A DNA stretch of 59,529 bases, from IMG/VR virus record IMGVR_UViG_3300032257_000014, positions 1-59,529 of that record. One strand, 5' to 3'. The DNA is from a virus (taxonomy: Duplodnaviria; Caudoviricetes). The position numbers and the translations under genes are program-made. Of the stretch, positions 3,214 to 57,799 are shown piece by piece (positions within the stretch are counted from its first letter, which is position 1; each line of letters opens with the position of its first letter). The notes beneath the pieces were generated by a model. The model was not told the DNA's origin and made no database searches. It saw only the letters and a list, made by a program, of their open reading frames with translations.

Positions 3214-3241
3214 ATTGTCATGTTAGTATTAATAAAATTTT

Positions 3242-22408: not shown

Positions 22409-24943
22409 GTGGCTTTTGGTGGTTGGCTTAGAGATGTCTTTCAGAGTGCTTGGGATCATATTAAAGATGCCGTAGTCTCTGGCTGGCATAGTATTTTAGA
22501 TGAAGTAATAGAACCTGTTTTCAATGCCCTTGGTATTGAAGATGAGGAAGTGCTTCAAGCTCAAAAGTTATCTTTTCTACTACAAGCAAAAACAGATGCA
22601 GAAATAGCTGCAGACTTAGCAGCAGGTATCGATCCAATTGATTTAGTTCAACAAGCTAAAACAAGAGCTGTTATATCTATGATGAAAACCGGTGGATCGT
22701 TTTCTGATTGGTATATTGCAGGCATATCTAAAACACAATCTAACCTGTTAGCCTTTTATAACTACGCAAAGTTCGGAGGCTATGTACATGGGCTACCAAC
22801 AGTAGACATAACAGGCGGTACAGCAGTAGATGAAGCAATAGTGCTATTATCACTCATACTTGAAAAAGGTGCCGGTTCTACTCTAATTTCATTTAGAACT
22901 AAAACACCTACTCGAGAAGAGTACTTCGAAGATAAGTTTCAAGCTGCTCCTTACTACTTTATTCCTTGGAGTCGTAGACTTACGTTTACTGACCCCTGGG
23001 GAGTGGTAAGAACTGATTACATACTAGGCACATTAGAAACTAATGCTGAAAATGGTAGACCTGAATATAATCTTTATCGCTCAGCACCTGAAGCAATTTT
23101 TTGGCTAGAAGGACAACAAGAAGTTGTTAGAGGAAATAATGCTACATACACTTTAAAGTGTAATCGTACAGTTCCTGTAGGAACTTCTGTGTCAATAAAC
23201 CTTTCTTACACTGGATCAACACTATCAAGACGTTATGTAAGTATACCTGTTGTTGTGTTAAGTGGTGGTACTAGTGAAACTGAATTCGTTGTACGAACGT
23301 ATGCACAGGATGAAGTACTAGGCGACACAGCTATTACTATAACAATGGATTCTATTGTAAATACAAGGGAATCTTTTGAAGCAGTAACGCTACACACAAC
23401 TAATTCTGTCACTACTATATTGACTGATGATACAAGCGTGGTTATCACGCAGTCTCCATCAGAAAACCCAACTCCAGTAGATATAGATGTCACAGGTACA
23501 ATTCTAGAATCAGCGTATACGCCAGAATACTCATTAGTTGTGAAGTACCATAACTCTGCTAATCCTGCCGGGGAGTGGTTTTACTGGATATACAAGTACA
23601 GTGATGAAACATATGATTTTATATCACCTGCTACGACGTTAACCGATGAAGAGATGCTGCCTGTTGTCATTGTAAAAAATGAGAATGGCGCAGTGAATGA
23701 CGATAAAACTTCAGATGAGTATTTGTCAGGTAAACGAATGCTTAAAATCCTTGGCCTGGACATCGATGAGTTAACAGATAGTTTAATAGAAAATGAAAAC
23801 TATGATCAAATTCAGGATGTATATGTGAATTTTGCGCTTAGTCCATCGTCTACAAAAGAACTTGTATCTAAAGCACTATGGTTAATATTTTATGACCTTA
23901 TTGTTACCAAAAATTTAACAACTACTGTTGATACCTACTCAATGACCTTTGTGGAACAGAGTGTCAAAAACGCCCTTGTTTGGACAAACCATAGCTATAC
24001 AACCGGACTCACTGGCACACTCACTGATTCACAAGAATATGAGCATGAGGTTATAGAACTTGAGCTAATTACAATTGAAAATCCAGATCCAGATGCTTAT
24101 GAAAGACTAGTTACACAAGAAGCTTCTGATGACTTTTATATACGTAAACAAACTGCACCTAATGTGTATGCAGAACTATTTATCCAGAATTTAAGTGGTT
24201 TATACACGATAAAGAAAGAAGAATTTACATCAATAGTTACTACCAGAGTAGTAAATGATGAATCTGATAATGGCTTCACAATACCGGTATCTTACTCACT
24301 TATAAGAGAATTAAGCCTAACTGAAGTAATGCAACTGCAAGAGTATATGTTGAGAGTAGATGTATATGCTGCAGACATAGTAAATATACGCTGGTATGCA
24401 ACATCAACCTTCAGTATTCTATTTAAAATTGTATCTATTGTTATAACAGTACTCTCAATGGGTTCATTATCATTCTTTGATTTACTTGGGAAACTAATAT
24501 TTTATGCTGCAGTAAGTGAATTAGTGGTCTATATAGCTATAGAAACTGGCAATGAGGAACTAGCAGCAATTGTTGGATTAGTTGCTATCATAGGCTTTGG
24601 TGGAGGCCCAGGCGAAGTAATAGACTTTGGATCAGCTGAAGGCTTATTGATGGCATCTACAAATTTTGCAGATAACCTTACTGAGGCATTTGGTGTAACT
24701 ATGGAAGGGCTTGCAGAAGAACTCGAGTTCATCAATGAAACAACCGAAGAACGCTTAGCTGAGCATAAAGCAGCACTTGGCGACGTAAGTCCAATAGATG
24801 CTGAATTTCTTGTAGCACTAAAAAGTGTAGATACCACAATGTATCCAGCAATTAAAGCTCAGTATGATTTTGACCTTATATTTAACTATGATAAGATTAT
24901 TAAAGATTTCTACGAACTTAACTACAGAACAGGAGTATCCTAA
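22409..24943 (+). CDS. N4 gp53-like large virion protein with C-terminal hydrophobic helices
   Basis: Size, synteny, WFYWIY and MLPVVIVK motifs, WY followed by a TM-rich segment. Confidence 0.7.
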   Translation: MAFGGWLRDVFQSAWDHIKDAVVSGWHSILDEVIEPVFNALGIEDEEVLQAQKLSFLLQAKTDAEIAADLAAGIDPIDLVQQAKTRAVISMMKTGGSFSDWYIAGISKTQSNLLAFYNYAKFGGYVHGLPTVDITGGTAVDEAIVLLSLILEKGAGSTLISFRTKTPTREEYFEDKFQAAPYYFIPWSRRLTFTDPWGVVRTDYILGTLETNAENGRPEYNLYRSAPEAIFWLEGQQEVVRGNNATYTLKCNRTVPVGTSVSINLSYTGSTLSRRYVSIPVVVLSGGTSETEFVVRTYAQDEVLGDTAITITMDSIVNTRESFEAVTLHTTNSVTTILTDDTSVVITQSPSENPTPVDIDVTGTILESAYTPEYSLVVKYHNSANPAGEWFYWIYKYSDETYDFISPATTLTDEEMLPVVIVKNENGAVNDDKTSDEYLSGKRMLKILGLDIDELTDSLIENENYDQIQDVYVNFALSPSSTKELVSKALWLIFYDLIVTKNLTTTVDTYSMTFVEQSVKNALVWTNHSYTTGLTGTLTDSQEYEHEVIELELITIENPDPDAYERLVTQEASDDFYIRKQTAPNVYAELFIQNLSGLYTIKKEEFTSIVTTRVVNDESDNGFTIPVSYSLIRELSLTEVMQLQEYMLRVDVYAADIVNIRWYATSTFSILFKIVSIVITVLSMGSLSFFDLLGKLIFYAAVSELVVYIAIETGNEELAAIVGLVAIIGFGGGPGEVIDFGSAEGLLMASTNFADNLTEAFGVTMEGLAEELEFINETTEERLAEHKAALGDVSPIDAEFLVALKSVDTTMYPAIKAQYDFDLIFNYDKIIKDFYELNYRTGVS

Positions 24944-25389
24944 TGGAAGGTTATTACGATAATGGTTTAGCCAAAACCATGGGACAATCTACTGGATCAT
25001 TTATTGACCAGAATGGACAACAAGTACCATTTTTGAGTAATGATGTATTTAATGCTTATGGTGGTAATAACAATAGTCCATATGGATTTACGCCTAAACC
25101 AATGAATAATTGGCAGAAAGGTTCACTAGCCATGCAAGGTATTACATCGTTTTTAGGTGCTATTGATGCACGTAAACAAACAAAAATGATGAAACAAAAC
25201 AACCGATTTGAGCAAGGTTTAGCTAATCGAAACTTACATAACTCTGCAGTAACTACCAATCGACAATTATCAGATAGAAACGATGTAGCAGCACAGTTAA
25301 CTAGTGGCGCTGAATATGGTTCAGCAGGTCACCTAGCTGAAAGAGATCGTGGATTAATCTCGGTTGATGGTTCACCAATCACAGTTTAG
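24943..25389 (+). CDS. N4 gp52-like small ejection protein
   Basis: 148 aa, Cys-free, synteny, TNRQLSDR motif. Confidence 0.6.
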   Translation: MEGYYDNGLAKTMGQSTGSFIDQNGQQVPFLSNDVFNAYGGNNNSPYGFTPKPMNNWQKGSLAMQGITSFLGAIDARKQTKMMKQNNRFEQGLANRNLHNSAVTTNRQLSDRNDVAAQLTSGAEYGSAGHLAERDRGLISVDGSPITV

Positions 25390-25397
25390 GAAATAGT

Positions 25398-26927
25398 ATG
25401 GCTATTGATGCACAACAAATAAAAGTAAATCTTCAGAGAGCTAATCCTAATGCAGGGTTAGCTATTGCTTCTCGAGGATTTGGTAATATAGCCAATTCTA
25501 TTCAAGCACATGACAATGCCAATGATACTGCACAGCACCGTAATGGTATATTAGCTAATCAAGAACAAAGACTTATTGCTGACACTCAAAATAGAGAAGC
25601 AATGCTCAAACTTGCCCAAGATAAACAAAATTATGTCGAAGGTGAAGGTCAACGAAGAATTCTTGAAGAAGAACGTTTACTAAAAAATTCTGCTGAGCAA
25701 GGCATATTAGCTAATGAAGTGGCTAATAACGCTGGACTTAGCCGTGCACCTGCAATGTTTGAAAACGAAACTAATCAACGGATTATGGATAATAGTCCCG
25801 AATATCGACAGTTAATGGGTATGGGTGGAGATGCTACTGGTCCAATGACTCCAGAAGCTCAAGCGAATGTTGACCAGTATCGTGAAGATTTTACTAACGA
25901 TCCTAGAAATAAACGATTGTTATCAGATCCAAACGTGTATAAAACTGAAGTATTAGGCAAATTACTTAGCTCTGGTAAATTCAGTCGTCAAGATGCTGAA
26001 GCTATTGCTACACAAAAAACTGCAGCACTATTTCCAACTATGGATATGGAAACTGCTGGTCGATTACTTAAGAAGCCTGGTTCATCTGGTTCAGGTAGTG
26101 GAAGCAGTGGTTCTAGTGGTTCTTTTAAAAATGAATTTAGTATAGGTACACCTAAAGGTCGTGCTGACGTTGTTGATCGATTTGTGGAGTCTCGAGGTCT
26201 AGAAAAAGTACCTGATAACTTCTTATGGACTGACATGAAATACGATGTAGGTCGTCAGAACCCTACCGGTGCAGATATTGCTAAAACATTAGCACGCTTA
26301 GCTACTGATGGAATCGTAAGCAGCACTGCAGGTGAAGCAGCTATAACTGAGGCTTTTAATGCTGATGGTGTAACGTTAGATGATAAATTTAACTTCACAA
26401 CTAAAAAAGGTTATAACGAGTTACTTAAAGTTGCTCAAAGATCACAACAGCAAGAATTAACAAAAACTAATACTAAAAGTGGTTCTTCAGGAATACTTGG
26501 CTACCAAAATCAGCTAGATGCTGATCGTGATTATAACGAAAGTATCCTTGGTAAAACTGTGCAGGACCAAAGTACACAACAGAAACGTATGTCTACTTTC
26601 CTTGGTGGATTGCCAAGTGCTCCTAAAACAGTAGCTAAAACAGTCCCTGGTGGATACATCGATACTGATGGTGGTAATACTCCATCTCCAGTTGTTGATG
26701 ATAAATCAATAATGCCTGCAGTAAATGCTGATGACTTAACATCAGAAGAAAAAGACAATGCAGTGTCTGGTTTAAGGTCATTAGCTAACCCAGGTGCTGC
26801 ACGTACTGCTCGAGGCAAAGAGACTATTAAAATGTTGAAACGTATAATGCCTGATATAACAGCAGAAGATCTACGTACTAACCATAACTCTATACTTAAT
26901 GATATTATAGATTCAGTCAGCCAATAG
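25398..26927 (+). CDS. N4 gp51-like ejection (internal virion) protein
   Basis: Cys-free, helical, Gly/Ser linker; upstream of the vRNAP genes. Confidence 0.55.
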   Translation: MAIDAQQIKVNLQRANPNAGLAIASRGFGNIANSIQAHDNANDTAQHRNGILANQEQRLIADTQNREAMLKLAQDKQNYVEGEGQRRILEEERLLKNSAEQGILANEVANNAGLSRAPAMFENETNQRIMDNSPEYRQLMGMGGDATGPMTPEAQANVDQYREDFTNDPRNKRLLSDPNVYKTEVLGKLLSSGKFSRQDAEAIATQKTAALFPTMDMETAGRLLKKPGSSGSGSGSSGSSGSFKNEFSIGTPKGRADVVDRFVESRGLEKVPDNFLWTDMKYDVGRQNPTGADIAKTLARLATDGIVSSTAGEAAITEAFNADGVTLDDKFNFTTKKGYNELLKVAQRSQQQELTKTNTKSGSSGILGYQNQLDADRDYNESILGKTVQDQSTQQKRMSTFLGGLPSAPKTVAKTVPGGYIDTDGGNTPSPVVDDKSIMPAVNADDLTSEEKDNAVSGLRSLANPGAARTARGKETIKMLKRIMPDITAEDLRTNHNSILNDIIDSVSQ

Positions 26928-26946: not shown

Positions 26947-29709
26947 ATGCCAAAGTACATTTTTGACAATAATAGTAATCCGTACATGGACTTGCCATCT
27001 CTTGCGGATAGTAAGAAATCTAATTTACTTAATAAACTTGCGGGGAAGCAAGAACGATTAACTCCAACTCCAGTACCTGTTGAACCTTTACCAACTAGAA
27101 TTTTTAGTGATGGTGCTTCAGGTGATGGTTTAATTGATATGGCTGAAGCAAGCTTATACCGTGGTGCAGGTAACATTGCAGATACATATGCTAATATTCA
27201 ACAAAATGCCTTAGATAACCCAAACTACGCACTGTCTCCAGAAATTGATAATTTATCAGATCAAGCTTACTCCGACGAGAAAGCTGGGTTTACAGGTAGA
27301 GAAGCCTATAACGAAGATATTCACAAATTAACTAATGCTGTAAACAAAGGTGGTCTTGCCGGGTACTCAGAAGCTGCTATGCGAGGTTTGGCCTTAGGGC
27401 CAAGAGCTCTTGCTGATTCAGCAGCTAGTGGTGTAGAACTTGGTGTTGGAGCTTTAGCTACCGCTGCAGCTGGTGCAGCAACTGGTCCTGTTGGAGCAGC
27501 AATAGTCGGTGCAGCTGCATTTGGCAGCAAAGCTAAAAAAGTTGTAGACGCTGTAGATAAAGTAGTTACATTAGGTGATCGTCTTAAGAAAGGTGCTAAA
27601 GCTGTACCTGCTCTAATTGCTAAGAGTGCTGGTCGAACCAGTTTACTTACTGCTGATATTACTGAACAAATGCGTCAAGAATACAAAGAGGCTAATGGCG
27701 GTAAAGAACCATCTGCTGCCTGGTATGCAACAAATGTCCCTGTAACCATGGCATTAAATGCAGTTGAATTTGGAATCATCACAAAAGCTGTACCTAAATT
27801 CAGTAAGTCTTTTGTAAAAGATATGAAGCATTCAGTTAAATTTATGTCTAATAGTCATGCATTAGAAGCTGCTAAACGTATATTTGGTGGTATTAAAAAG
27901 GTAACTGCTGCTGCTGGAGCTGAAGCTGGACAAGAATACTTGCAGACTTGGCACGAAATACTTGCACCAGTTGTTAGTGGTAAAAGTTTAGAAAAATTTG
28001 TAACTACTGCAGCTCAAGCGTTAGGTAATGATCAAAACCAAACTGAAGCTATTGTTGGTTCAATCTTAGGATTTAGTGCTGGTGGTACTGCTCGAGGTAT
28101 TGCAACAGTTCCTCAAGTTTCTGCCGGGGTAGCTTTAGAAGGTGCCCTTGGCACAGCTAAAACAGCAGGTGAAGGTCTTAAAGCTGCTAACAGAGGCATT
28201 CAAAATGCTACTAATAAAGCAGGTCTTAAGGTGCTCAGCGAAGATGACCGTGCAAATATTCGTAACGACTATGACATTGCAGAAAAAATCGTTGAAGAAA
28301 AATCTGCAGAGATTGATACTAAGATTGAAGTTATCAAAGATGCAAAAACTCTTGAAGACCTAGCTGCTGATAAAGACTTAAATGTTACCATCGGTAAAGC
28401 TATGGATGAACTAGGGTTCCTTGATGGTGACCTAAAAGATCCTGCAAAGTTTAAAAAACTACAAGATAAAATTATACGTAATCAAGCTGCAGCGAAAGAT
28501 CTACTTAAAGTAGAGCTCGAGACAAGTAATGCTAGTGCTGTAGTAAAAGCTTCTACCACAAACATAAAAAATATGACTGTTGAAGCTGCTAAAGCAGCTA
28601 TCGATAAAGTTCCTAAGGAAGTTGTTGAAGCAACAGTGGCAGCAGCGATTAAAGCTAAAGCCATACCTGCAGTTGCATTAAAATCAGTTCAGCAGTTAAG
28701 ATCAAGCTCTGCTTACGGCATTGTCGAGATAGGCTTAAAAGGTACAGTTAAGCAATCTAAAATAGCATATGAAGCTGCTAAGGATTTAAGTCATACTGAC
28801 ATTCAGAAAGTAGCTGATATTGTCATGGAAAAGAATCCAGACCTTGGTAAAAAATTAAACAAGCTGTATGAAGATAAGAAGAAAGCGTATGAAAATTTTG
28901 ATATACGTAATAAAGATCTTATTAATGCTGAGAATCTACCAGCAGAAATTAAAGAAGTAGCTAAAAATGGTACGATAGGTACTCAGTCTGCAGCAGGCAT
29001 TGCTAAACTTATCAAGCACGCTATGGGTAGCAAAATTGCTGATAAAGCTACTTTGGACATTTTATCTAAAGCAGTTGCTGCATACAAAAAATCTGATGCT
29101 TACACTAATACTAAAACTAAAGGCCGTATTGATGAACGAAATATGGCTGTACTGGAAAATCGCCTTACTCTTGCTAAAGATCGACTTGGCCGAGAAGTTA
29201 CAACTGAAAACGTAAAAGAAGCAGTTGATACCGTAGTAGACAAAGTTACAAAGAGTGCAGAAAAGGTAGTAGATAAAGCTAAGTCTGTAGCTAAAAACGT
29301 AACAAGTAATGAAAAAGTTAAAGCAGCAGCAGTTAAAGTTACTAAGGCTGTTGATTCTGTTACCCGGGAAAGTAAAGAAATAGCGCCTGGAAAGCTCCAC
29401 GACGTTATATCAAACGTAGCTACTAGTGTTACTAATGGCAATATTGATGAAATGATTACTGCTATACCTGCATTTGTTAAAAAACTTGCAAGTAAAGGTT
29501 ATGAAACTGAAGCAGATTTTAATGACTTAATAGCCCAATTCCCTGGACTAAAAACAGCTGATAAATTTTATAATGAACTAAAATCTAAGTTTGCTGTTGA
29601 AACAGATGTTATTATGAGTGAAGATTCAGACAGTATACAAACTGATCCTGTTAGCCCAAATGTGGTCTTTCAGTTATTTGAAAAATTAATCCCTGGATGT
29701 AAGAAATGA
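26947..29709 (+). CDS. Internal virion protein, probably equivalent to the N-terminal (injection) domain of N4 vRNAP
   Basis: Ala/Gly-rich hydrophobic helices, EAGQEYLQ motif typical of ejection proteins, 920 aa, single Cys near the C-terminus, ATGA overlap with the RNAP ORF. Confidence 0.6.
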   Translation: MPKYIFDNNSNPYMDLPSLADSKKSNLLNKLAGKQERLTPTPVPVEPLPTRIFSDGASGDGLIDMAEASLYRGAGNIADTYANIQQNALDNPNYALSPEIDNLSDQAYSDEKAGFTGREAYNEDIHKLTNAVNKGGLAGYSEAAMRGLALGPRALADSAASGVELGVGALATAAAGAATGPVGAAIVGAAAFGSKAKKVVDAVDKVVTLGDRLKKGAKAVPALIAKSAGRTSLLTADITEQMRQEYKEANGGKEPSAAWYATNVPVTMALNAVEFGIITKAVPKFSKSFVKDMKHSVKFMSNSHALEAAKRIFGGIKKVTAAAGAEAGQEYLQTWHEILAPVVSGKSLEKFVTTAAQALGNDQNQTEAIVGSILGFSAGGTARGIATVPQVSAGVALEGALGTAKTAGEGLKAANRGIQNATNKAGLKVLSEDDRANIRNDYDIAEKIVEEKSAEIDTKIEVIKDAKTLEDLAADKDLNVTIGKAMDELGFLDGDLKDPAKFKKLQDKIIRNQAAAKDLLKVELETSNASAVVKASTTNIKNMTVEAAKAAIDKVPKEVVEATVAAAIKAKAIPAVALKSVQQLRSSSAYGIVEIGLKGTVKQSKIAYEAAKDLSHTDIQKVADIVMEKNPDLGKKLNKLYEDKKKAYENFDIRNKDLINAENLPAEIKEVAKNGTIGTQSAAGIAKLIKHAMGSKIADKATLDILSKAVAAYKKSDAYTNTKTKGRIDERNMAVLENRLTLAKDRLGREVTTENVKEAVDTVVDKVTKSAEKVVDKAKSVAKNVTSNEKVKAAAVKVTKAVDSVTRESKEIAPGKLHDVISNVATSVTNGNIDEMITAIPAFVKKLASKGYETEADFNDLIAQFPGLKTADKFYNELKSKFAVETDVIMSEDSDSIQTDPVSPNVVFQLFEKLIPGCKK

Positions 29710-32700
29710 GTTTTTGCCCTAACTATAACTATTTCACTAAATACATACAAGCATTCCGCCAAAATGTTGAAATTGATAAGCAAAAAGATAAAGACCTACG
29801 TTACAACGTATGGGGTACAACAGCTACTCATGTGAGTGAGATGTTTTCTAAAGGTATTGACGCGTTACCTTGGGACGATAATAATTCTCAACATGTTAAA
29901 AGTAAGATCGAACGTTCACTGAAAAATATAACTGAATCTCCTAAATCAATTCAGGGATTCATGAAAGACATCATCAATAATGATGATGGAAATAACATCG
30001 AATTCTCAATAGCACTCCACGAGTTAATGGAATCTGTTAAAGGTGAAGCTGATAAAGCACGTAATATAGGTATTGAAATATCTGAAGTTAGTGAAACCGG
30101 TGTATTACCATCATTACCACTATCTCGCTTAGCAGCCAGTATTGGTCGTAAGATTGCATACCAAAAAGGTTATCGATTCAAAAGCCAAGAAGTAAATCCA
30201 AGCACTGCTGCAGAGATTGAAACTCTGTATTACGCAATTGGTAAACTTGCACTAGAAGGGCTTGAGCAAAAAGGTTATGTGAAAGTATCTGATGGCATGT
30301 CTACTATTAAAGACTACATTGATATTACTGAGCTAAGTAAAGAGTTCCCTAAAACCAATGTTGCCACTGATAAAGTACTGAGTGTGTCTTTGGATGAGAA
30401 AAAATTTGGTATTAAAGCAAATACTCCTGAGTCAGCTTATTTCCTAAATCGTACAGAATCTGATTTAACAGACACTGAATTAGGGACCATAACCGACGTA
30501 CTTAGAGCTGTTCGCCAGGTAACACAACCTTCACAGTATCAATTACCTGATGCATCACCAACCCAAACCATGGAAGAATTGGCTGAACGTGATGATCAAA
30601 ATATTGGCATAGATCCTAAGACTGAAGCTGTACGTAAAAAACTTTATGATACTCCAGTGTATGTACATAGCAGTGTGCATGACCTTATGACCTTGCTTAA
30701 TAAAGAAGCAATGAAAACAGGTAAGTCAGCCTCTAAAATTATTAAAGAAAAGTTTCAAGGTCACCAAGAAGTAATCAACTCATTGTTCGGACTGAAGCGT
30801 TCTGACGATCATTCTATTGACAAGAAAGAATCAGTAGCTGGACAAAACTTGTCTAAGACAGCTCCGTTGGATGATCTTGTTGAGTACTATGATGTGATAC
30901 AGAAAGGTTCAACTACTCCTGCACCATTACACATGCCATTGAAGATTGGTCGTAATGCACGCTTATACTATGAGAACAGTGTGTTAAATCCACACGGCTC
31001 AAAGCATAGCCGTTATATGCTAACCGCAGGCCAGTACACCGTAGATTCAGGTTCCGCTGACTTCGACTACCTTGTATATGGAATTTCACAAGCTTTAGGT
31101 GACAAAACACTTACATACAATAATTTCACTGGTAAGACTGAAAGCAAATTAGATGACGCGATTAAAGTATTTGACCGTTATGAATCAAGCAACACATTAC
31201 AGAAAAAATTAGCTGCAATCAGTAATTTATCAGTTATGTTCCCTGGTGTGGATTACGTATCGTTGATTACGACTATAAAAGCCGTGAAGGACATTCGTGC
31301 TCCAAAGGGTGGCAAAGTTACAACTGAGTTTAATGTCTCTGCAGATGCTACCGCTTCAGGTGGTACGTTAACATTCTTGCAAGCATTGGGTACAAATCCA
31401 AACGTTGAGAAATTCTTACAGCGTATTGGTATGCTCAAGCAGCCAGATGGTTCAGTTAAGGTGTCATTAAACGATTTATATGGCGTTATGACTGAGAACA
31501 TCGATAAGTTCGTCAAAGGCGAAGTTATTGAGAATTTAGTTGGCCAAGACTTAAGTAAATTAGCTACTGGTCCAAGATTGTTAATGCAGGACACGGTAGA
31601 GCTACTGTTTAATAAAGGTGAGGATACTCGAGAGCTTTCTAAAGACCCTACAATGACATTTGTGTATGGTCAGAAGCGAAGAGGTGCCACAGAAACTATG
31701 GCTCGATCATTAGCTGATCGTATTGTGGATAGCTTGAATTCTCCAGCAACTAAAAAGTATTTAGTTCGATTACTGGGTAAAGAATACTCAGATATGGAAA
31801 GTGAAGAGTTACGTAACACTAAAGCTTTATACATTAAAATTGTTACTGAGTTACAGAGCTCTGGTTTAACTGGGCAATTGTTCGACATAATGAATGCGTC
31901 GATTAATGAAGAGTACTTAGTTGAGTTTAAATCTCGTTCTGATCAAGTTTTTGACTATGTTAAAAAGCTAGACTCAGGTCGTCCATTCAAGATTTTACCT
32001 GCAGCAGCAGTACTTGCTGGTTTGAAGCCAACATTAGCTAACTTAAAAAAGTATGGCATGCCGTTGACTAAGGTATATGAGGTTTCTAACCCAACACCTA
32101 CTAATAACGATACAGTTCTTACACGTAGACAAAAGCTTACTCAAACAGTAGCTGATGTATCTCCAATACATAGTATTGATGCAGCTCAACTTTATGGCTC
32201 ATTAGATGAAGTTATGACTGATAATGGTGCTGTAGTTGTACATGATGATATTCGTGGCACAGTACAAGATGTGCGTGCAATGGAAGATAAGTATCGTGAA
32301 GTCACTAAAAAAGTTATCAGTGAATTTGATATACATCAACAAATTATGGAAGCTGTTAAAGCTTATGGTCCTGAAATTGCTGAATCACCTGGTTTCCAGG
32401 CATTAATGTCTGAAATTCTTGCTGAAGTAGAAAGTAAGAAGAAAATTATGAACTCTGATGAGTTCAACGATGATACTCATGCACTTATCGGTGATGGTAA
32501 TAAATTTATTGAGTTCGCTAACGGTGAACAGAAAGCTGAAACTAAGAAGCCTGTAACTAAGAAAGCTACCCCTAAAAAGAGTGGTACTGCTTTATTGAAA
32601 GAGCTTGCTGGTGAGTCAACCATCATCACTAATTTCTTATCTATGATGAATAAGAGTGATGTAGAAGTAGGTGATGGCAACACATTTACTCCTAAAACTG

Positions 32701-35700
32701 ACACAATTACTATTACCGGTACTGACCAAGGTAGAGGTGACGGTAAAGTTTTAGACATGAATAACAAAGCTGATCGTAAGATGCAGAAAGAGCTCATCGA
32801 GCATGAGATTACACATGCCAATACAGTAGCTCAGATTACTAAAGCTCTCGAGCAAAAAGATGGCTATGAGCATGCTGAAGTAATGTACTTTCAGAAGGCT
32901 ATAAAACAGCTTCAAGATAAATTCCGTAATGACATCAAAGGTTTAACAAATCTGCCCGGGGAAGTGTCTGGAAGATTGAACTACATATTTAAACGTACAG
33001 ACCAAGCTGAGCAGATAGCTGAATTTGTGGCTATCATGAATGCTGAAACTGATACTGCTAATGAAATTTACGCAATATTGGCTAAAACAACTAAAGGTGA
33101 TATTAAGTCTCGCATTAAAGAATTTGTTAAGAAAATTGCTAAGGCATTTGAAAAATTAACTGCTGCAGACTTTAAGAAAGATATAGACGTAGAGAAACTT
33201 TACAGTGCTATTGCTTCGACTGTTGCACAAGGTGAAACTCAACGTGAACAAAATTACGCTGAGACAGAAAAGTATTTATCTAAATTTGATAAGGCATTTG
33301 GAGCTGGAGTAAAAGATAGAAGTAACCTTAATTATTTGAATGCAGCTGTATCAAGTATGCTTAGCAGCAAATTTGAAGGTGAAGGTAAAAAGCTTGTTGG
33401 ATCTATACACGGAAAAATGAAAGAAGTATTCCCTGTATATACTGATGTGGCTAATAAAATAGCAGGTATCTACGACGAATCTGCAGCCCTACAGCAGATC
33501 TTGCACTCAATTACCGGTAATGGCATTGATAAGAGCAAGAAAGCTGATGTACTAGCTCAGTTTGCTGATGTGATGGCACAACAGACCTCTGTAATCAATG
33601 AGCAGATGGGTAGGTTTAATGAGCTACTTGCACCATTATCTGAAAAAGAAAAAGAAACAATTGGACGTTTTGTAACTGAAATGCCATTGCATGACTATTT
33701 TGTGTTGGCTGATGGGCTTGTGACTGAATCTGCGATAGCAGATGAAGTAATAAAACTTGAGCAAGCAATTAAGTCAGCAGGAAAGAAAAATGTTATTACC
33801 AGTATTGATAACTTAATTGATTGGAATGTTAATCATAACGAAAGAGCTAAAGGTAGAATATACAATCTTGCTGCTGGAGATACTCAATACAAAGGTGAAC
33901 TCGGTGAGAATGCTAGAAAATTACTCGCATTAAAATCTATCCAGACAATTGGTGCTAAAGACTTTGAAAAGCTATTGGCAAACACAGAGTTAACTAATCT
34001 TATTAAAGATAACAGTGTAGCGAATAGCTTGAGCTTACTAGAAAATAATGGCTCAAATAATTTATCTGATAGTCTTTTAATGGATTATTACAAAGAGCCA
34101 TTTCAGATTGAAGCAGTTGAAGAATCTGGACTTAGCCGATATAACACAGGTGAAAATACTGGATGGGAAGTATTACAAGCTCCTGAAGGTGGCAGACTTG
34201 GAATTGTGTATAGACCAATAATTGATTCAACAAATATTATGGGTGCCTATACAGATATAAAATTAAACTCTACTGGTATTACTGTCAGTGAAAAACATAA
34301 AAATACAGTTGGAGTAGTTAAGTCTGGAGACAATGAATACAAATTTAGGTTGACTAAAGATCAAAAATTAAAATTAGGATTGGTTGAAGATTTCAGCCAA
34401 GGACTAGTTCGCAGTACTGCTCACAATATGGCTATTCAGGATTCACAGATTATTCGTGATGAGATGTTAAGAAAGGATACTAGAAAAGTAGTAGGTAAGA
34501 ATACACAGGAATTAGAAGATATAGTTGCTTCTGACAATGTAGATAACCCATGGTTTATTAAACTTGAAGAAGGCACGGTATATGAAAAATTACCGAAAGC
34601 AATTCAAGCTAAATATATGAAGGTAGGTAGTCGTGTATCTAATGTAGATAACTTTGATGAGAATGTTGATTTAGTTCGAAAGGATATTTCACATTGGTTA
34701 TTGGGTGGAAGTGCAACCTCATTATTTACTAACCCACAAATGAAGTGGACAATGAGAATTGTAAAAGACTTAATAGCGGGTGCTAAAATTGGGATGGTAG
34801 TACTTAATCCAATTAAGATTGCTAATGATAACATCTCAAATGTTTCGTACTTAGGTGTGATGGGTGTGTCTCCAGTATTTATTGCAAAGAATTACAAAAA
34901 TATTACTCGAGATTTCCAAGCGTACTCTGATCTGCAACGTCAAATTATTCAGTTGAAAGTTCAATTGGTTGCAAAACCAGAGAGTACTAAGCTTAGTAAA
35001 AAGTTAAAGTCATTACAAAAAGAATTAGCTAAAAATTCTCTCGGTAATATTACAGAGAAAGGGTTTATTAACTCTCTAGGTTCTGACCTGGTAGCTAAAA
35101 ATGCAGACACATTATCTGGTCTACAAGCGGATATGCATACAGCTCTTAAATACCTTCTTATTAACAAAGATGGTAAGAAAAACTACGTGTCTCACTTTAT
35201 AATGCAACTCCAGAACCTTGGGTTTAATGGCGAAGATTTTTTAACTTACGTTGGAAAAATTGCCAATAAAGCTAGTAAGGATGGTAAAGGTGTCCAAAAA
35301 GAATTGGATCAGGTAGCTAGTCGATTGAAAGAGATCCGTACTGAAGAAGATATTATCAATTACGTTTCTCAATACACTAACAGTCCTGGCAGTGAGGCTG
35401 TACGCCTTGGAGCTTCGATTACTGACCTAACAGATGTGTTGGCCAAAGAAACTCTTTATCGTCACTTAGTTGAGGTTGAAGGCGCATCTCATGAAGCTGC
35501 ACGAATAAAAGTACTAGATTCGTTCCCAGACTATAAAGAAAATATGCCTTTAGCTATAAAACAACTAAGTGATTCCGGTATCATAATGTTTCCATCATTC
35601 TGGTTAAGAATTCAGAAAGTAATTTACCGGATGATTCGTGATAAGCCAGTTAACCTGGCTGCGGAATTAATGCTTGAAGAAGCATTTGGTAATAATATTA

Positions 35701-35813
35701 ACACCATTCTAGATGCTAATATTGTTAACAAATCAAATTCATTTGGTGGACTATTTCATACGCCAATAGAACCAATTGGTTTAGGAAGTATATTACCAAC
35801 GCATTTGTTTTAA
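29706..35813 (+). CDS. Virion-packaged single-subunit (T7/N4-type) RNA polymerase with zincin-like and C-terminal domains
   Basis: GRNARLY, motif A DATASG, motif B RELSKDPTMTFVYG, PIHSIDAA, motif C VHDD, then HEITH; position as N4 gp50. Confidence 0.9.
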   Translation: MSFCPNYNYFTKYIQAFRQNVEIDKQKDKDLRYNVWGTTATHVSEMFSKGIDALPWDDNNSQHVKSKIERSLKNITESPKSIQGFMKDIINNDDGNNIEFSIALHELMESVKGEADKARNIGIEISEVSETGVLPSLPLSRLAASIGRKIAYQKGYRFKSQEVNPSTAAEIETLYYAIGKLALEGLEQKGYVKVSDGMSTIKDYIDITELSKEFPKTNVATDKVLSVSLDEKKFGIKANTPESAYFLNRTESDLTDTELGTITDVLRAVRQVTQPSQYQLPDASPTQTMEELAERDDQNIGIDPKTEAVRKKLYDTPVYVHSSVHDLMTLLNKEAMKTGKSASKIIKEKFQGHQEVINSLFGLKRSDDHSIDKKESVAGQNLSKTAPLDDLVEYYDVIQKGSTTPAPLHMPLKIGRNARLYYENSVLNPHGSKHSRYMLTAGQYTVDSGSADFDYLVYGISQALGDKTLTYNNFTGKTESKLDDAIKVFDRYESSNTLQKKLAAISNLSVMFPGVDYVSLITTIKAVKDIRAPKGGKVTTEFNVSADATASGGTLTFLQALGTNPNVEKFLQRIGMLKQPDGSVKVSLNDLYGVMTENIDKFVKGEVIENLVGQDLSKLATGPRLLMQDTVELLFNKGEDTRELSKDPTMTFVYGQKRRGATETMARSLADRIVDSLNSPATKKYLVRLLGKEYSDMESEELRNTKALYIKIVTELQSSGLTGQLFDIMNASINEEYLVEFKSRSDQVFDYVKKLDSGRPFKILPAAAVLAGLKPTLANLKKYGMPLTKVYEVSNPTPTNNDTVLTRRQKLTQTVADVSPIHSIDAAQLYGSLDEVMTDNGAVVVHDDIRGTVQDVRAMEDKYREVTKKVISEFDIHQQIMEAVKAYGPEIAESPGFQALMSEILAEVESKKKIMNSDEFNDDTHALIGDGNKFIEFANGEQKAETKKPVTKKATPKKSGTALLKELAGESTIITNFLSMMNKSDVEVGDGNTFTPKTDTITITGTDQGRGDGKVLDMNNKADRKMQKELIEHEITHANTVAQITKALEQKDGYEHAEVMYFQKAIKQLQDKFRNDIKGLTNLPGEVSGRLNYIFKRTDQAEQIAEFVAIMNAETDTANEIYAILAKTTKGDIKSRIKEFVKKIAKAFEKLTAADFKKDIDVEKLYSAIASTVAQGETQREQNYAETEKYLSKFDKAFGAGVKDRSNLNYLNAAVSSMLSSKFEGEGKKLVGSIHGKMKEVFPVYTDVANKIAGIYDESAALQQILHSITGNGIDKSKKADVLAQFADVMAQQTSVINEQMGRFNELLAPLSEKEKETIGRFVTEMPLHDYFVLADGLVTESAIADEVIKLEQAIKSAGKKNVITSIDNLIDWNVNHNERAKGRIYNLAAGDTQYKGELGENARKLLALKSIQTIGAKDFEKLLANTELTNLIKDNSVANSLSLLENNGSNNLSDSLLMDYYKEPFQIEAVEESGLSRYNTGENTGWEVLQAPEGGRLGIVYRPIIDSTNIMGAYTDIKLNSTGITVSEKHKNTVGVVKSGDNEYKFRLTKDQKLKLGLVEDFSQGLVRSTAHNMAIQDSQIIRDEMLRKDTRKVVGKNTQELEDIVASDNVDNPWFIKLEEGTVYEKLPKAIQAKYMKVGSRVSNVDNFDENVDLVRKDISHWLLGGSATSLFTNPQMKWTMRIVKDLIAGAKIGMVVLNPIKIANDNISNVSYLGVMGVSPVFIAKNYKNITRDFQAYSDLQRQIIQLKVQLVAKPESTKLSKKLKSLQKELAKNSLGNITEKGFINSLGSDLVAKNADTLSGLQADMHTALKYLLINKDGKKNYVSHFIMQLQNLGFNGEDFLTYVGKIANKASKDGKGVQKELDQVASRLKEIRTEEDIINYVSQYTNSPGSEAVRLGASITDLTDVLAKETLYRHLVEVEGASHEAARIKVLDSFPDYKENMPLAIKQLSDSGIIMFPSFWLRIQKVIYRMIRDKPVNLAAELMLEEAFGNNINTILDANIVNKSNSFGGLFHTPIEPIGLGSILPTHLF

Positions 35814-38640: not shown

Positions 38641-39126
38641 TTAAAAATACTTTTTCTCCCCGTCTTTACGAGCAGAAATAGCATCTTCTAATTTTTTAAA
38701 ACGTCCAAGTGATATGGACTTTCGTTCAACAGTGATTGTCGCTCTCCACTGTTCTTGTTGTTTACACCAAGAAACTCCAGTAACACCAGATTTGTTATTA
38801 GAACTTAGTTGGCAATTACGTGATTGAGTTTCTTTAGAAGCCCACCGTAAATTGCCTGGTTCATAATTTCCAAGAGGATCAATACGATCAATAGTGTACG
38901 TAGGTTTAAGAGCATTATCTAAAGACATGATGTATTTATCATAGGCATGAAAATCAACAATCCATTCTTCCTTAATCTTTATTCCTTTGGCCCCATACCT
39001 AAAGTACTCTGGATCTGACTCCAAGTAGCAACGATGTCGCATGTGATTCCAGCGAATATAATTAGGTGATTTAGTAGCACCTGTATTTTTTAAACGGCCA
39101 AATCGAGTCTGTCTTGTTTGTTTCAT
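38641..39126 (-). CDS. HNH-AP2 endonuclease
   Basis: W.HMRHRC...YGAKGI, TIDRIDPLGNYEPGNLRWA, then the AP2 domain NKSGVTGVSW...WRATI...LGRF. Confidence 0.9.
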   Translation of the reverse strand: MKQTRQTRFGRLKNTGATKSPNYIRWNHMRHRCYLESDPEYFRYGAKGIKIKEEWIVDFHAYDKYIMSLDNALKPTYTIDRIDPLGNYEPGNLRWASKETQSRNCQLSSNNKSGVTGVSWCKQQEQWRATITVERKSISLGRFKKLEDAISARKDGEKKYF

Positions 39127-39976: not shown

Positions 39977-40142
39977 GATATTTTTTCATCTCTTGTTTGC
40001 ACACTTCACATGTGACTAATTTTTTTATCGAAATAATTTTTAAGTGGTAACTACCATTTCTACAAAGTGGTTCACTACGTGAGTACTTTGGGTGTTGATA
40101 ATGTTGAACATCATCTTCATCTGGGTATCCCCTATAAGGCAT
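39969..40142 (-). CDS. 57-aa putative zinc-binding protein (not in the ORF track)
   Basis: MPYRGYPDEDDVQHYQHPKYSRSEPLCRNG...VTCEVCKQEMKKYHD; overlaps both neighbouring genes. Confidence 0.5.
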   Translation of the reverse strand: MPYRGYPDEDDVQHYQHPKYSRSEPLCRNGSYHLKIISIKKLVTCEVCKQEMKKYHD

Positions 40143-41925
40143 TTAGCACCTCCTGAATATCATCAATTGAAGCATTGTTTTTAATACTAGTTAACTCAGC
40201 CCAATTCTTACCAATTTCACCAACACACTCGTTAGGCACAATTGTGTCCTCGAGGTAATCAGTATTCATGATTGGAACTAGTGTGTCATTCAACCACTTA
40301 ATGGATTCAGCATCATCTTTAACGTAGATGTAAATTGAATCATAAATTGTTGAATGCGGTATTACAGCATCTGCCATACCTTGTTCACGCGCTTGATGAT
40401 TTAACTCATTAACAGCAATCAAAGTAAGTATGCTCCAGAACTGACAAGTAGCATTATGTAATGTTCTTATCTGTCCAGCGGGATCACTAGTGTATAACCT
40501 GCAACCAAGACCCAAGTGAATGTACCCTTGTCGTTGTGCGGTTTTGAGTACGTAATTTTCTCTGTAGTCAGTAATACCAGGATATAAAATATTATGGTAG
40601 TTATCAAAAATTTCTTGAGTAATAACACCACCTTTGTCTGCATCAGGGTAACCCCCATACGCAAGCTTAAAAGTTGGAGCTTTAGATATGAATCGAATAT
40701 GACCAAGTACATCATTACCGTCATCAACGGCTTTTTTAAACTCTTTAACATATGCAACATTATCAGTGTTCTCCCCAAGTTCTTTAGCAATATCATCTGG
40801 AAAGTAACCACAAGCATTCAATGAATGACCGTCAAGCCCTTCCAAGAAGATATTACACTTGTTGGTGTCACCAGTTAAATTAGCTATGCCACGGTCTTCT
40901 AATGCAGCGTAATCAATTGCGTAGATTAGATAACCTTCAGGAGCTTTAAAGCATTTCTTTAAAGGCTTAGCATAAATAGATCGTGTACTAGGCATATTAA
41001 GTAAATTAGGATTGTTACTCGTATTACGAAATGACTTAGCACCAAACAATTTAATGTTTCCATGCAACACACCGTCTACAGTAAACTTATCAAATGCTGT
41101 TAGAAAGTTACTACTTATAATGCTACTGAAAGAATAATCTATCATTGCATTAAGTACATTTAACAAATCACCTTCAGGTGACATCTTAGCTACGAGTTCA
41201 ACTTGATCTCTTCCCCATGAAGCTTCACCAGTATCTTTACTATAAGCTAATGGTTCAACCTTAAGCATTTCGAAAAACTCTTTCATCTGCTTATTACTGC
41301 CCGGATTAAACGGATCTAGTTTCACAGGTTTCTCAGCTTTTTCGTAACGAGGACGATTCCATAATTCTAATTTGTATTCTGCTAGTGCTACCATTCCTGC
41401 TTGCACATCAGCATTATTGGTTAATCTACGTTTATCACAGATAGCACCAAGAAACGGGTCTTTAAGAAAAATGTTATATGTTTTTAAATCTTTTAATACC
41501 CACTTGTCACGAATATCTTTATTCTTATGAATTTTTTTCAAGTAAGTATTAACTATCCAAGTACGGTGTATAACATCTGAACTTTTAAAGGGTTTTAAAT
41601 AGTAATCAAGTTCACGAACTGATTGAGTACACTTTTCCGCATAAGCTCTTTGAGCATATGGTAGTCGTTTAAGTTGAAATTGTTGTATAAGAGGATTGTC
41701 CTCTAATCGTTTTGCAACATCATCCAAAACTGTATGGACAGTATCACGTAATTTATTTACAGCATCTTTATCGATGTGCAATCCAGCATCCATCATCTGA
41801 ATCATGTCAGGTATGAAATGCTTAACAAAATTGTTATAAAAGAAATCAGGTTCTTTCTTATCTAGATCCACAGTTGGATCAAAATCTTTAGGATGTGGTA
41901 ATGGTAAAAATTCAATTGGACGCAT
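40132..41925 (-). CDS. polA: Family A DNA polymerase, polymerase-domain subunit
   Basis: PNLLNMP, motif A IDYAALEDR, DGHS, motif B RFISKAPTFKLAYG, NATCQ, motif C IYDS. Confidence 0.92.
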   Translation of the reverse strand: MRPIEFLPLPHPKDFDPTVDLDKKEPDFFYNNFVKHFIPDMIQMMDAGLHIDKDAVNKLRDTVHTVLDDVAKRLEDNPLIQQFQLKRLPYAQRAYAEKCTQSVRELDYYLKPFKSSDVIHRTWIVNTYLKKIHKNKDIRDKWVLKDLKTYNIFLKDPFLGAICDKRRLTNNADVQAGMVALAEYKLELWNRPRYEKAEKPVKLDPFNPGSNKQMKEFFEMLKVEPLAYSKDTGEASWGRDQVELVAKMSPEGDLLNVLNAMIDYSFSSIISSNFLTAFDKFTVDGVLHGNIKLFGAKSFRNTSNNPNLLNMPSTRSIYAKPLKKCFKAPEGYLIYAIDYAALEDRGIANLTGDTNKCNIFLEGLDGHSLNACGYFPDDIAKELGENTDNVAYVKEFKKAVDDGNDVLGHIRFISKAPTFKLAYGGYPDADKGGVITQEIFDNYHNILYPGITDYRENYVLKTAQRQGYIHLGLGCRLYTSDPAGQIRTLHNATCQFWSILTLIAVNELNHQAREQGMADAVIPHSTIYDSIYIYVKDDAESIKWLNDTLVPIMNTDYLEDTIVPNECVGEIGKNWAELTSIKNNASIDDIQEVLNAL

Positions 41926-42166
41926 CGGATTCCTCTACTACTACTCTAAATTTTCTTCTTGCTGACTCACCACGCTGACTTACAGCGTAGTCATTAAGTT
42001 CAGTCCAAAATTTAAGTCTTCTTTCTACTATTTCTTGAGTTGGCCATGATTCTAATACTTCAAATGGTGTATCTACAAGCTTAGAAGAGTAATGGCAACC
42101 GTTGTAACATCTACGTTGAGGATCAGTATTCACCTCATGCTTTATACTAGTCATAATCTTATACAT
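41912..42166 (-). CDS. Hypothetical phage protein between the two polymerase genes
   Basis: 84 aa, TDPQRRCYNGCH motif, overlaps both neighbours. Confidence 0.6.
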   Translation of the reverse strand: MYKIMTSIKHEVNTDPQRRCYNGCHYSSKLVDTPFEVLESWPTQEIVERRLKFWTELNDYAVSQRGESARRKFRVVVEESDASN

Positions 42167-42816
42167 TACATATCCTCCATAAAACCTTTGATGTCATACC
42201 AAAGTTTAAATGTTGCTGCACCATCAATAGAGCAGTAGATTAAAAACTTCGGATCTTTATTACTTTCAGGTTCGTACTCATTGTAGAGTGACCATGCAGG
42301 AGCATAATATGACCCCATCAGGTCTTTCAAACCAACCTTAGATTTCCATACGTCAACATGATTTGTTAAGCATTTAGCTAACAGTTGAGTGTCTTCGTAA
42401 TTCTGTGGAAATTTACCGATACGGTGATACATAATTTTTAAATCAAATAATGCATTGTGTATTAGTAATAAACCTTTGTACTCTGCAATCCACTTCCAGA
42501 TAAACATTTCTAATTGTGGGTTATCACATACAATTATTACACTCTCATTTTCAGACAACCCGAATATGAAATGTGTAACACTTACTAACGAAGGGAAACT
42601 CAACCCACTGTTGAAAGATACTTGCAGTGCAATACTCTTTTGGTCAACAGGTAGATTTTCACCTTTCAAATAATCTTTAGCTTCTTTACGATCAGCCTTA
42701 GAGTAAACACCCTTAGTTTCCGTATCGAAACTCATTATTTCACGCTTACTTAGTTCAGCGAGTATTTTGCCTACATGCCAACGATTACTATAAACTTTGA
42801 AATTTACATCAATCAT
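42166..42816 (-). CDS. Family A DNA polymerase 3'-5' exonuclease subunit (DEDDy)
   Basis: ExoI FDTET, ExoII HNALFD, EDTQLLA...GLKDL, ExoIII YCSIDG. Confidence 0.9.
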   Translation of the reverse strand: MIDVNFKVYSNRWHVGKILAELSKREIMSFDTETKGVYSKADRKEAKDYLKGENLPVDQKSIALQVSFNSGLSFPSLVSVTHFIFGLSENESVIIVCDNPQLEMFIWKWIAEYKGLLLIHNALFDLKIMYHRIGKFPQNYEDTQLLAKCLTNHVDVWKSKVGLKDLMGSYYAPAWSLYNEYEPESNKDPKFLIYCSIDGAATFKLWYDIKGFMEDM

Positions 42817-43148: not shown

Positions 43149-43766
43149 TTAATTTCTTCTTGATATTTTTGGTAGTAAATGTTCATATTCTTTTAAATAG
43201 TCTTTACAAAACTCAACCATATCTTCAATAGTTTGTCCCTTAGGGTGACGACTAGCGAACAACTGTAAATTTTCTATTCTATTATCGTCTTTAATACCGT
43301 TCATGTGATGAACTGTCTCTTCTGGGTATAAATCTCTACCTATATGTTTAGCCATTACTAAACGATGCTCAAGCACATCTTTTCCATTTATGCTTACATT
43401 TCTATATCCTTGTTTATTAATCCATCCAGTAGGTTCTGGTGGAGCGTCAGTATGCCCATATTTTATGAATCTTTTATGGTGTTTAGAGCAAAATCCATCA
43501 TTATACGATTTATGTGTGTTACAACCGCTAACACTACACTTTACAGATTCAAACTCTCCTTTAAATTTAGCCCTACCGTAATGAGAATGACAGTAACCCT
43601 TTGCTGAATGCACTTTGTTACAGCCTTCTACTGTACAGAGCTTAGGAGCTTTCCAACGCTTAATTTTTTCAGTTGTTCCAGTACGCCTAAGTCTTGTTGC
43701 ATGTGTTTGGCATAAACCTTTTGCTGCATGTTTTTTACCACAACCTTCAATGCTACATAATCTCAT
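43149..43766 (-). CDS. HNH endonuclease with three CxxxxC...CxxH zinc-finger repeats
   Basis: CSIEGC/CTVEGC/CSVSGC repeats; EHRLVMA...VHHMNGIKDDNRIENLQL. Confidence 0.9.
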   Translation of the reverse strand: MRLCSIEGCGKKHAAKGLCQTHATRLRRTGTTEKIKRWKAPKLCTVEGCNKVHSAKGYCHSHYGRAKFKGEFESVKCSVSGCNTHKSYNDGFCSKHHKRFIKYGHTDAPPEPTGWINKQGYRNVSINGKDVLEHRLVMAKHIGRDLYPEETVHHMNGIKDDNRIENLQLFASRHPKGQTIEDMVEFCKDYLKEYEHLLPKISRRN

Positions 43767-57798: not shown

Positions 57799-57799
57799 A

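Follow-up and report, generated by a model that had tools for sequence, protein, structure and literature searches.

Ejection genes and the two pieces of the virion RNA polymerase

The DNA analysed here, referred to as the window, is the complete IMG/VR record IMGVR_UViG_3300032257_000014 of 59,529 nucleotides (nt). It carries a gene for an N4-type virion RNA polymerase (vRNAP) that is divided into two adjacent open reading frames (ORFs), and each of the two encoded proteins has a single cysteine (Cys), located at the end that faces the break. The layout of the window is N4-like. Genes for the large terminase, portal, major head protein and ejection proteins lie on one strand, and those for SSB, DNA polymerase, primase and helicase lie on the opposite strand. 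Four consecutive plus-strand ORFs of 148, 509, 920 and 2035 amino acids (aa) were examined. The first (24943..25389, no Cys) encodes a small ejection protein resembling N4 gp52; it matched phrog_2646 with E 2.5e-07 and N4 gp52 itself with E 1.5e-05 (phmmer, three-sequence database). The second (25398..26927, no Cys) encodes a middle ejection protein that is a counterpart of N4 gp51 and gp72 of Pseudomonas phage DEV by position and size only; no family match was found in Pfam or PHROGs, and phmmer gave no significant match to N4 gp51. Its counterparts in relatives (501–884 aa) also lack Cys, except for one residue in the TTG-extended start of the protein from locus L016.

The fourth ORF (P0002; 29706..35813, +) was identified by profile similarity and by motifs. 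The 2035-aa protein matched phrog_2206, 'virion RNA polymerase', with E 5.5e-45, residues 1685–2014 aligning with positions 3109–3384 of the profile's 3406. With phmmer, residues 375–678 matched N4 gp50 residues 1375–1699 and residues 1906–1996 matched 3367–3459; this similarity is weak (full E 5.8e-07 in a three-sequence search, domain E 4e-04 at 1375–1699). GRNAR at residue 415, SADATASGG at 545 (with D547), RELSKDPTMTFVYGQ at 642 and VVVHDD at 843 are what we take to be the T/DxxGR, A, B and C motifs of T7-like single-subunit polymerases, and the motif residues are invariant in an alignment of 73 sequences. Pfam family PF00940 scored 19.7 bits on the protein, under the cut-off of 22. A HEITH sequence of the HExxH type lies at residue 1033 (32802..32816, +), at the start of the C-terminal domain (CTD), and appears as EHExxH in the alignment consensus; the 2026 N4 structure paper reports a conserved HExxH in N4 CTD-C1 (PMC13434306). 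The offset between the two proteins is 1000, so that residue 1 of the 2035-aa protein corresponds approximately to N4 residue 1001. The linker between the N-terminal domain (NTD) and the polymerase (RNAP) of N4 spans residues 907–1007 (PMC13434306), and the break in the window, as placed by this alignment, falls at the end of the NTD–RNAP linker.

The third ORF (P0001; 26947..29709, +) encodes a 920-aa protein that had no match in Pfam or PHROGs and no significant direct match to the N4 NTD. Homology to an unsplit vRNAP of 3154 aa (P0096) served to assign it: the two share 36% identity over 181 residues, at residues 284–450 of P0096 (E 1e-10), and the 2035-aa protein, in its polymerase and C-domain, aligns colinearly with P0096 as well. 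Gly/Ala-rich hydrophobic segments of the 920-aa protein are found at residues 159–194, 264–282 and 559–581. The AlphaFold2 (AF2) model, built from a 62-sequence alignment, is all-helical with a mean pLDDT of 73. A Foldseek comparison of this model with the PDB yielded nothing at E <= 0.001 and only helical-repeat proteins, at E > 0.1. PDB sequence searches returned designed helical repeats and the like only (best E 3.8e-04) with the N-domain alignment and no matches at E <= 0.01 with the RNAP–CTD alignment profile. As judged from these similarities, the 920-aa protein is the vRNAP N-domain and the 2035-aa protein is the polymerase joined to the C-domain. Position in the operon and the near-absence of Cys suggest that both proteins are packaged and ejected.

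Facing cysteines at the junction

The two genes overlap in the tetranucleotide ATGA (29706..29709, +), in which the first gene stops and the second starts. The junction sequence includes ggatgtaagaaATGAgtttttgcc; ATG at 29706-29708 opens the RNAP–CTD gene, and TGA at 29707-29709 ends the N-domain gene. The sole Cys of the N-domain protein is residue 918 of 920, encoded by TGT at 29698..29700 (+) in the tail LIPGCKK. The sole Cys of the RNAP–CTD protein is residue 4 of 2035, encoded by TGC at 29715..29717 (+); this protein begins MSFC (MSFCPNY in full context). In the AF2 model, the C-terminal tail of the N-domain protein (29656..29706, +), a putative clasp, comprises a low-confidence linker at residues 885–895, a short terminal helix at 904–914 and then PGCKK, so that Cys918 sits on a short tail after the helix.

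An earlier note, made from the letters of this DNA, had described one Cys in each chain at facing ends, the ATGA overlap, the absence of Cys from the 148-aa and 509-aa proteins and a split at the boundary between an N4-type N-terminal domain and the polymerase, and had given N4 vRNAP as Cys-free. All of these points agree with the coordinates and counts given above and with the N4 sequences, as N4 gp50 has no Cys; N4 gp51 and gp52 have none either. Over 51 ORFs of the window, Cys accounts for 130 of 17,387 residues (0.75%). At this frequency about 22 Cys are expected in the 2,955 residues of the two proteins; two are present, and none occurs among the other 2,953 residues. Because the pattern of a single Cys at each facing end recurs in relatives down to approximately 25% identity, it is, as a property of these sequences, far beyond chance.

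Junction geometry and age of the break

One codon before the ATG of the second ORF, a stop closes its reading frame. To learn whether the break is an assembly artefact, as the earlier note had advised by calling for a check for an indel at the junction, we used a Logan contig covering 29300-30100. It showed no differences and no gaps relative to the window in this contig-level comparison. The contig comes from the only public run that holds the window DNA, which is labelled microbial mat and is probably the source sample.

The break is also kept in relatives. In a first scan it was present in all nine loci with a readable junction (two Alteromonas phages and seven IMG/VR loci); the remaining loci of that scan are contig-end fragments, with the exception of L008. 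A second scan added 14 further loci with the break. Eight junctions were compared and all proved different: the genes overlap by 4, 1 or 13 nt or are separated by 2, 3, 6, 9 or 14 nt, two frame relations occur, and stops lie just upstream in the second frame. With such varied geometry and upstream stops, no shared frameshift or read-through can therefore fuse the genes. The continuous ORF that the earlier note had named as a possible refutation is thus absent from the nine and 14 loci alike. An exhaustive HMMER search with the N-domain among 1.84 billion representatives returned 99 clusters; 98 of them fall below 1,700 aa, the exception being the unsplit 3154-aa protein. A blastn search of the junction region against the phage collection gave no match. 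Taken on these comparisons of sequence, the split is genuine and old.

Cysteine content on both sides of the first junction

On the N-domain side, 93 of the 99 representatives have exactly one Cys, located 0–7 residues from the C-terminus. One more, P0089, adds two internal Cys to such a terminal one, and five have none, namely four fragments lacking the C-terminal end (P0060, P0086, P0100 and P0101) and the unsplit P0096. Cys918 is one of eight invariant columns in the 62-sequence alignment, whose mean column identity is 24%, and the consensus before the C-terminal Cys is P-[G/I/E]-C (95 tails). The polymerase side was collected by a word-index search that yielded 63 proteins including the query. 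Every RNAP–CTD protein of 1836–2324 aa (48 of 48) has exactly one Cys, at residue 3–7, and two unsplit proteins, P0162 (3536 aa) and P0163 (3428 aa), have none. The remainder are 11 CTD-only proteins, P0124 and P0146. Cys4 is nearly invariant in the 73-sequence polymerase alignment. Both residues are thus conserved in homologues, a point on which the proposal of the earlier note depended.

The same rule was seen when both genes of a locus were considered together. Both Cys and no other were present in all nine first-scan loci with a readable junction. The second scan, made with the N-domain alignment, found 29 loci; seven contigs seen previously were excluded and 22 were tabulated. Both sides of the junction were visible in 14 of the 22, and all 14 obeyed the rule, the one extra Cys of L034 lying only within a GTG-extended start. 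Three of the 22 (L042, L043 and L047) have a very long first ORF, and L044 is unsplit, with no Cys in over 3,074 aa. L023 and L025 end just past a Cys-tailed N-domain gene; L032, open at its 3′ end, lacks Cys throughout its 821 aa. The last of the 22, L046, is a partial relative with an internal Cys. Assignment of the remote loci L045, L047 and L050 was by tblastn (E 3e-05 to 9e-04) and size; phmmer of these three against a small reference set gave no match.

A second break and four gene architectures

In some relatives the polymerase is separated from the C-domain as well. Genome G001 encodes three pieces. The N-domain protein (912 aa) bears its sole Cys 2 residues from its C-terminal end; the RNAP-only protein (1003 aa) has two Cys and no more, one at residue 3 and the other 3 residues from its C-terminal end; and the C-domain protein (1280 aa) has its sole Cys at residue 6. 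The C-domain gene stands approximately 6.5 kb beyond the RNAP-only gene. Five ORFs of 120, 108, 751, 595 and 413 aa (locus L020, G001:C1:20500-39500, minus strand) separate the two; the large ones contain Cys, and none of the five had a PHROG match.

When shorter relatives were sought, 34 proteins were obtained. The 29 that are complete RNAP-only proteins (993–1060 aa) all have exactly two Cys, at residue 3–4 and 2–5 residues from the end. The other five carry the N-terminal Cys only and miss the C-terminal one: the source name of P0191 labels it partial, P0195–P0197 are fragments of 296–390 aa, and P0165 is 1116 aa long. CTD-only proteins (1197–1326 aa) have one Cys in 11 of 11 cases, at residue 6 (n = 10) or residue 9 (n = 1). 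In the window the corresponding position is an intact, Cys-free, low-complexity linker at about residues 940–1000 of the 2035-aa protein (32523..32705, +). Pairwise alignment placed it by showing where P0164 (RNAP-only) ends and P0148 (CTD-only) begins on the 2035-aa protein; the counterpart in N4 is a linker at residues 2102–2123 (PMC13434306).

Breaks at the second junction alone were also found. In L042 and L043 the first ORF (2508 and 2804 aa, respectively) spans the N-domain and polymerase of P0096 and has its sole Cys 3 and 0 residues from the end, in that order. In both loci the next ORF starts with a Cys-bearing end, and that of L042 matches the C-domain. L047 (2664 aa) was placed in this class by size only. 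With N, R and C denoting the N-domain, polymerase and C-domain, four architectures are therefore represented, unsplit, N|RC, N|R|C and NR|C, and in each there are as many Cys as broken ends. When the three search sets were pooled, 217 terminal and 3 internal Cys were counted in 247,634 residues, a Cys of P0124 being counted as internal.

Phylogeny and a neighbouring control

A FastTree phylogeny of the polymerase domain (73 rows, 912 columns, SH-like support only) requires at least five changes between the fused and split states at the second linker, all of them forced by well-supported branches. The number of changes could be inflated by inter-phage recombination, and their direction could be fission or fusion. 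The nearest relative of the window, at 74% identity, is P0164, a three-piece form. The extra Cys tracks the state of the second junction in five of five independent contrasts (sign test, p = 0.0625, the best value that five pairs can reach).

The 844-aa virion protein encoded nearby (22409-24943, +; phrog_2220) was used as a control. It has one Cys in the window, at residue 251, and 0–4 Cys at shifting sites in 22 matched ORFs of the loci. Two contexts recur around the Cys of this family, Y-T-V-x-C-N and N-C-S-D.

Related systems

The window resembles N4 (gp50) and phage DEV (gp71) in the order of the N-domain, T7-like polymerase and HExxH-bearing C-domain, in the small and middle ejection proteins, in the N4-type portal, capsid and replication genes, and in the purge of Cys. 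It differs in that the vRNAP of those phages is one chain of 3398–3500 aa without Cys, whereas the chain of the window is broken and bears Cys at each broken end. According to the DEV paper, Cys makes up 0.00075% of 191 vRNAP homologues versus 0.865% proteome-wide, which was attributed to passage through the periplasm (PMC11445570). The N4 structure paper describes vRNAP as three folded units with two flexible linkers, 'beads on a string', that is probably unfolded for ejection, and calls it a single chain in 'likely all Schitoviridae' (PMC13434306). The words cysteine and disulfide are absent from that paper (PMC13434306).

The closest cultured relatives are the Alteromonas phages vB_AmeP_PT11-V19 and vB_AmeP-R22Y, with 31–32% identity over the RNAP–CTD protein. 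They have the same two-gene arrangement, with proteins of 1000 aa (Cys997) and 2082 aa (Cys6) in one and 1008 aa (Cys1004) and 2083 aa (Cys6) in the other. Annotation lists the upstream gene as hypothetical and labels the 2083-aa protein 'vRNAP'; the published descriptions, as far as they are accessible, name neither the split nor the cysteines.

A fission of vRNAP has been published for phages AltAD45-P1 to P4 (vB_AmaP_AD45), in which ORF127 (2481 aa) and ORF126 (1404 aa) encode the two parts; the stop was confirmed by resequencing of polymerase chain reaction (PCR) products (PMC3821669). In the sequence of AltAD45-P1 (NC_021532), the first protein has its sole Cys 2 residues from the C-terminal end and the second its sole Cys at residue 4, the same rule at a gene break as in the window, although the AltAD45 break falls at the RNAP–CTD linker and that of the window at the NTD–RNAP linker. 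We count one Cys in ORF127, versus the 'two cysteins' mentioned in PMC3821669. Garcia-Heredia et al. (2013) took the cysteines to mean that the protein 'will not be injected', and in the part of their paper that is available no bond is proposed (PMC3821669). In the RefSeq entry for AltAD45-P1 (locus L051; NC_021532, 1564-13288), the vRNAP genes appear only as a 'potential frameshift' misc_feature, with no coding sequence.

An actual bond between a comparable pair of Cys is known from cyanophage A4. Cryo-electron microscopy of its capsid pre-ejectosome revealed a disulfide that links Cys5 of gp26 with Cys1715 of gp27, which lies in a C-terminal helix; the capsid houses both proteins before their ejection (PNAS 2025, PMC12002296). 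The gp27 and gp26 genes of A-4L are adjacent, and their products have their sole Cys at residue 1715 of 1717 and residue 5 of 1114. The same pair of terminal Cys is present in two other, distantly related Saffermanviridae, Pf-WMP3 (L052, 3665-11752) and Lsp-JY17 (L053, 3665-11711), where a 1495-aa protein has its sole Cys 1 residue from the C-terminal end and the next protein, of 1153 aa, has its sole Cys at residue 5. The likeness to the window thus consists of adjacent genes, an upstream sole Cys near the C-terminal end and a downstream sole Cys among the first residues. The differences are that A4 belongs to the Saffermanviridae and that no polymerase is known in gp27 or gp26; nor does the A4 paper, in the part accessible, tie its Cys pair to a gene fission (PMC12002296). 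Our literature search, with subscription journals outside its coverage and some sources available in part, found no account of a disulfide-joined or Cys-tipped split vRNAP.

Other features of the window

The DNA polymerase of the window is also divided between two ORFs, one for the polymerase part (597 aa) and one for the 3′–5′ exonuclease part (216 aa). Near it are a GIY-YIG SegE-like ORF and two ORFs for HNH endonucleases; the ORFs of this group, all on the minus strand, are at 40132-41925, 42166-42816, 38641-39126, 43149-43766 and 45220-45633. This is a second split gene of the genome, apparently of the homing-endonuclease kind. An 83-aa ORF at 71-322 (+) has a Tad2-like (Thoeris anti-defence 2) domain (Pfam PF11195, E 4.7e-16). 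At the other end, a nicotinamide phosphoribosyltransferase gene (56317-57921, minus strand; phrog_448, E 4.4e-175) adjoins one for ribose-phosphate pyrophosphokinase (57800-58678, minus strand; phrog_619, E 8.1e-73). Together they presumably form a nicotinamide adenine dinucleotide (NAD) salvage pair of the kind used by phages against NAD-depleting defences. A 51-aa ORF at 45869-46024 (minus strand) matches the ClpX C4-type zinc finger (PF06689, E 7e-10).

Discussion

The N4-type vRNAP, the fission of its gene (AltAD45) and one terminal disulfide between ejected proteins (A4) are already known. The regularity of the Cys rule is striking, and it is testable in cultured phages. We propose that the two thiols facing each other across the break form a head-to-tail interchain disulfide in the virion; conservation and the A4 structure make this probable. 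The earlier note had suggested that the halves may be joined by one disulfide in the virion and that its reduction in the cytoplasm would free the RNAP. The sequence comparisons that it asked for, on continuity of the ORF and on conservation of both Cys, came out in favour of that reading, which is supported to the extent that sequences allow. The published AltAD45 fission, the second break with its own Cys pair and the A4 disulfide are additions to the note. The vRNAP gene is broken at the flexible linker between a membrane-associated N-domain and the polymerase, and both chains are otherwise free of Cys, like other ejected proteins of the vRNAP family. The disulfide would join the chains end to end, the N-domain protein by its C-terminus and the RNAP–CTD protein by its N-terminus. 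With both thiols only a few residues away from the termini, the joined chains would be topologically close to the unsplit chain, forming a linear thread with stubs of 2–8 residues. Such a thread could be packaged via the C-domain and pulled through the tail piece by piece, despite the unfolding of domains and the loss of non-covalent contacts. The ends would have to dock before oxidation, for which the helix preceding Cys918 and the extensions at the second junction would be suitable, and oxidation would follow, in the capsid or after lysis. On arrival, thiol systems of the host cytoplasm would reduce the bond. That this reduction releases the polymerase from the membrane-associated N-domain is a suggestion to which we give an even chance.

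The terminal thiols might act otherwise, sharing a metal ion, forming bonds with another virion component (the portal or the gp51-like tube, for example) or pairing with their own kind. This seems to us unlikely. There is indeed a single Cys per end, often with acidic residues nearby (E before the C-terminal Cys and D two residues after the N-terminal one in the consensus), and about four vRNAP copies per N4 virion are cited in PMC11445570, which makes homotypic pairs sterically conceivable. However, a need for a third partner or for a homotypic bond would not track breaks, whereas the number of Cys follows the broken ends through all four architectures and falls to zero in unsplit chains. The window tails themselves, PGCKK and MSFCPNY, have no acidic or His neighbours, and the equivalent pair in A4 is heterotypic (PMC12002296).

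Less probable still is an association of the chains by non-covalent docking only, the Cys remaining free thiols with a role in packing or after entry. The terminal helix before Cys918 in the AF2 model fits docking, as do the conserved helix-like extensions on both sides of the second junction in three-way forms, RLDMVEKLKICL and MALKGCIxKAGKALD; but a buried packing residue need not be Cys, and the vRNAP family otherwise purges this amino acid (PMC11445570). A residue that stays invariant at 24% mean identity, with its distance from the end drifting between 0 and 7, fits a reactive thiol on a flexible tail better. The migration of the AltAD45 polypeptides as separate bands (PMC3821669) would also be expected under free thiols.

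That the two ORFs really make one chain, through sequencing error, programmed frameshift, read-through or intein-like splicing, is very improbable: the ATGA overlap does place the second ORF in the −1 frame and a terminal Cys is reminiscent of splicing chemistry, but the junctions of eight lineages differ in overlap or gap and in frame relation with stops just upstream in the second frame, genes at the second junction can stand about 6.5 kb apart (G001), an independent contig agrees with the window, and in AltAD45 the stop was resequenced and both polypeptides were seen (PMC3821669). Split inteins or trans-splicing were considered separately and rejected, as Pfam found no intein or Hint family in either protein and the Cys are at the outermost ends. 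The boundary Cys of split inteins lie approximately 100 and 35 residues in, unlike those of the window.

Several observations weigh against the proposed disulfide. Our estimate of its probability draws on conservation together with analogy to one unrelated structure, that of A4. BLASTP of A-4L gp27 and gp26 against the window proteins gave best E values of 0.78 and 0.68, that is, no similarity, and A4 is therefore a precedent by analogy and not by membership. Virions are assembled in the reducing cytoplasm, so docking would have to come first and oxidation later. Among 85 window ORFs (46 scanned with PHROGs and 39 with Pfam) no thioredoxin, Dsb or sulfhydryl-oxidase family was found. Microbial mat, the label of the sole public run with window DNA, denotes a habitat in which oxygen may be lacking. 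The two AltAD45 polypeptides were visible as separate bands, in gels whose conditions the accessible passages do not state (PMC3821669). The Cys rule has exceptions as well: P0089 has two internal Cys in addition to the terminal one, P0124, truncated at its 5′ end, has a Cys inside the ATASGG motif, and the partial N-domain relative L046 (7323-8857) has an internal Cys. Finally, P0146 (1204 aa, no Cys), from a contig of 4.3 kb, begins within the polymerase; it may represent a Cys-less break instead of a cut gene call.

A bond of the proposed kind may belong to a more general 'thiol stitch', in which the fission of giant ejected proteins is repeatedly offset by a redox-cleavable bond, with one new Cys per end and the cytoplasm as the arrival signal. 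It would have had separate origins in Saffermanviridae and in N4-like phages, in the latter at two linkers, the second of which shows five or more changes between fused and split. We regard this generalization as tentative, with chances slightly short of even. Separate genes may ease the exchange of modules, as the repeated changes of state at the second junction hint.

Cys-tailed 'hypothetical proteins' of about 900–1100 aa that precede a 'vRNAP' of about 2000 aa should be named vRNAP N-domain. How a polymerase of 3500 residues is packaged, unfolded, threaded through a tail of approximately 35 Å and re-activated is described as an open question in PMC13434306. Natural cuts at both flexible linkers, apparently re-joined by cleavable bonds, make the threading question testable, and cultured Alteromonas phages exist with both kinds of break. 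If the bond is real, the published view that the AltAD45 cysteines mean no injection would be reversed, the purge of Cys from vRNAP would gain a positive counterpart, thiols being retained only where a bond is wanted, and N4-like phages would be linked to the single disulfide of the cyanophage A4 pre-ejectosome. The thiol stitch, if true, would be a general principle of podophage ejectosomes and would explain why the remainder of these proteins is free of Cys.

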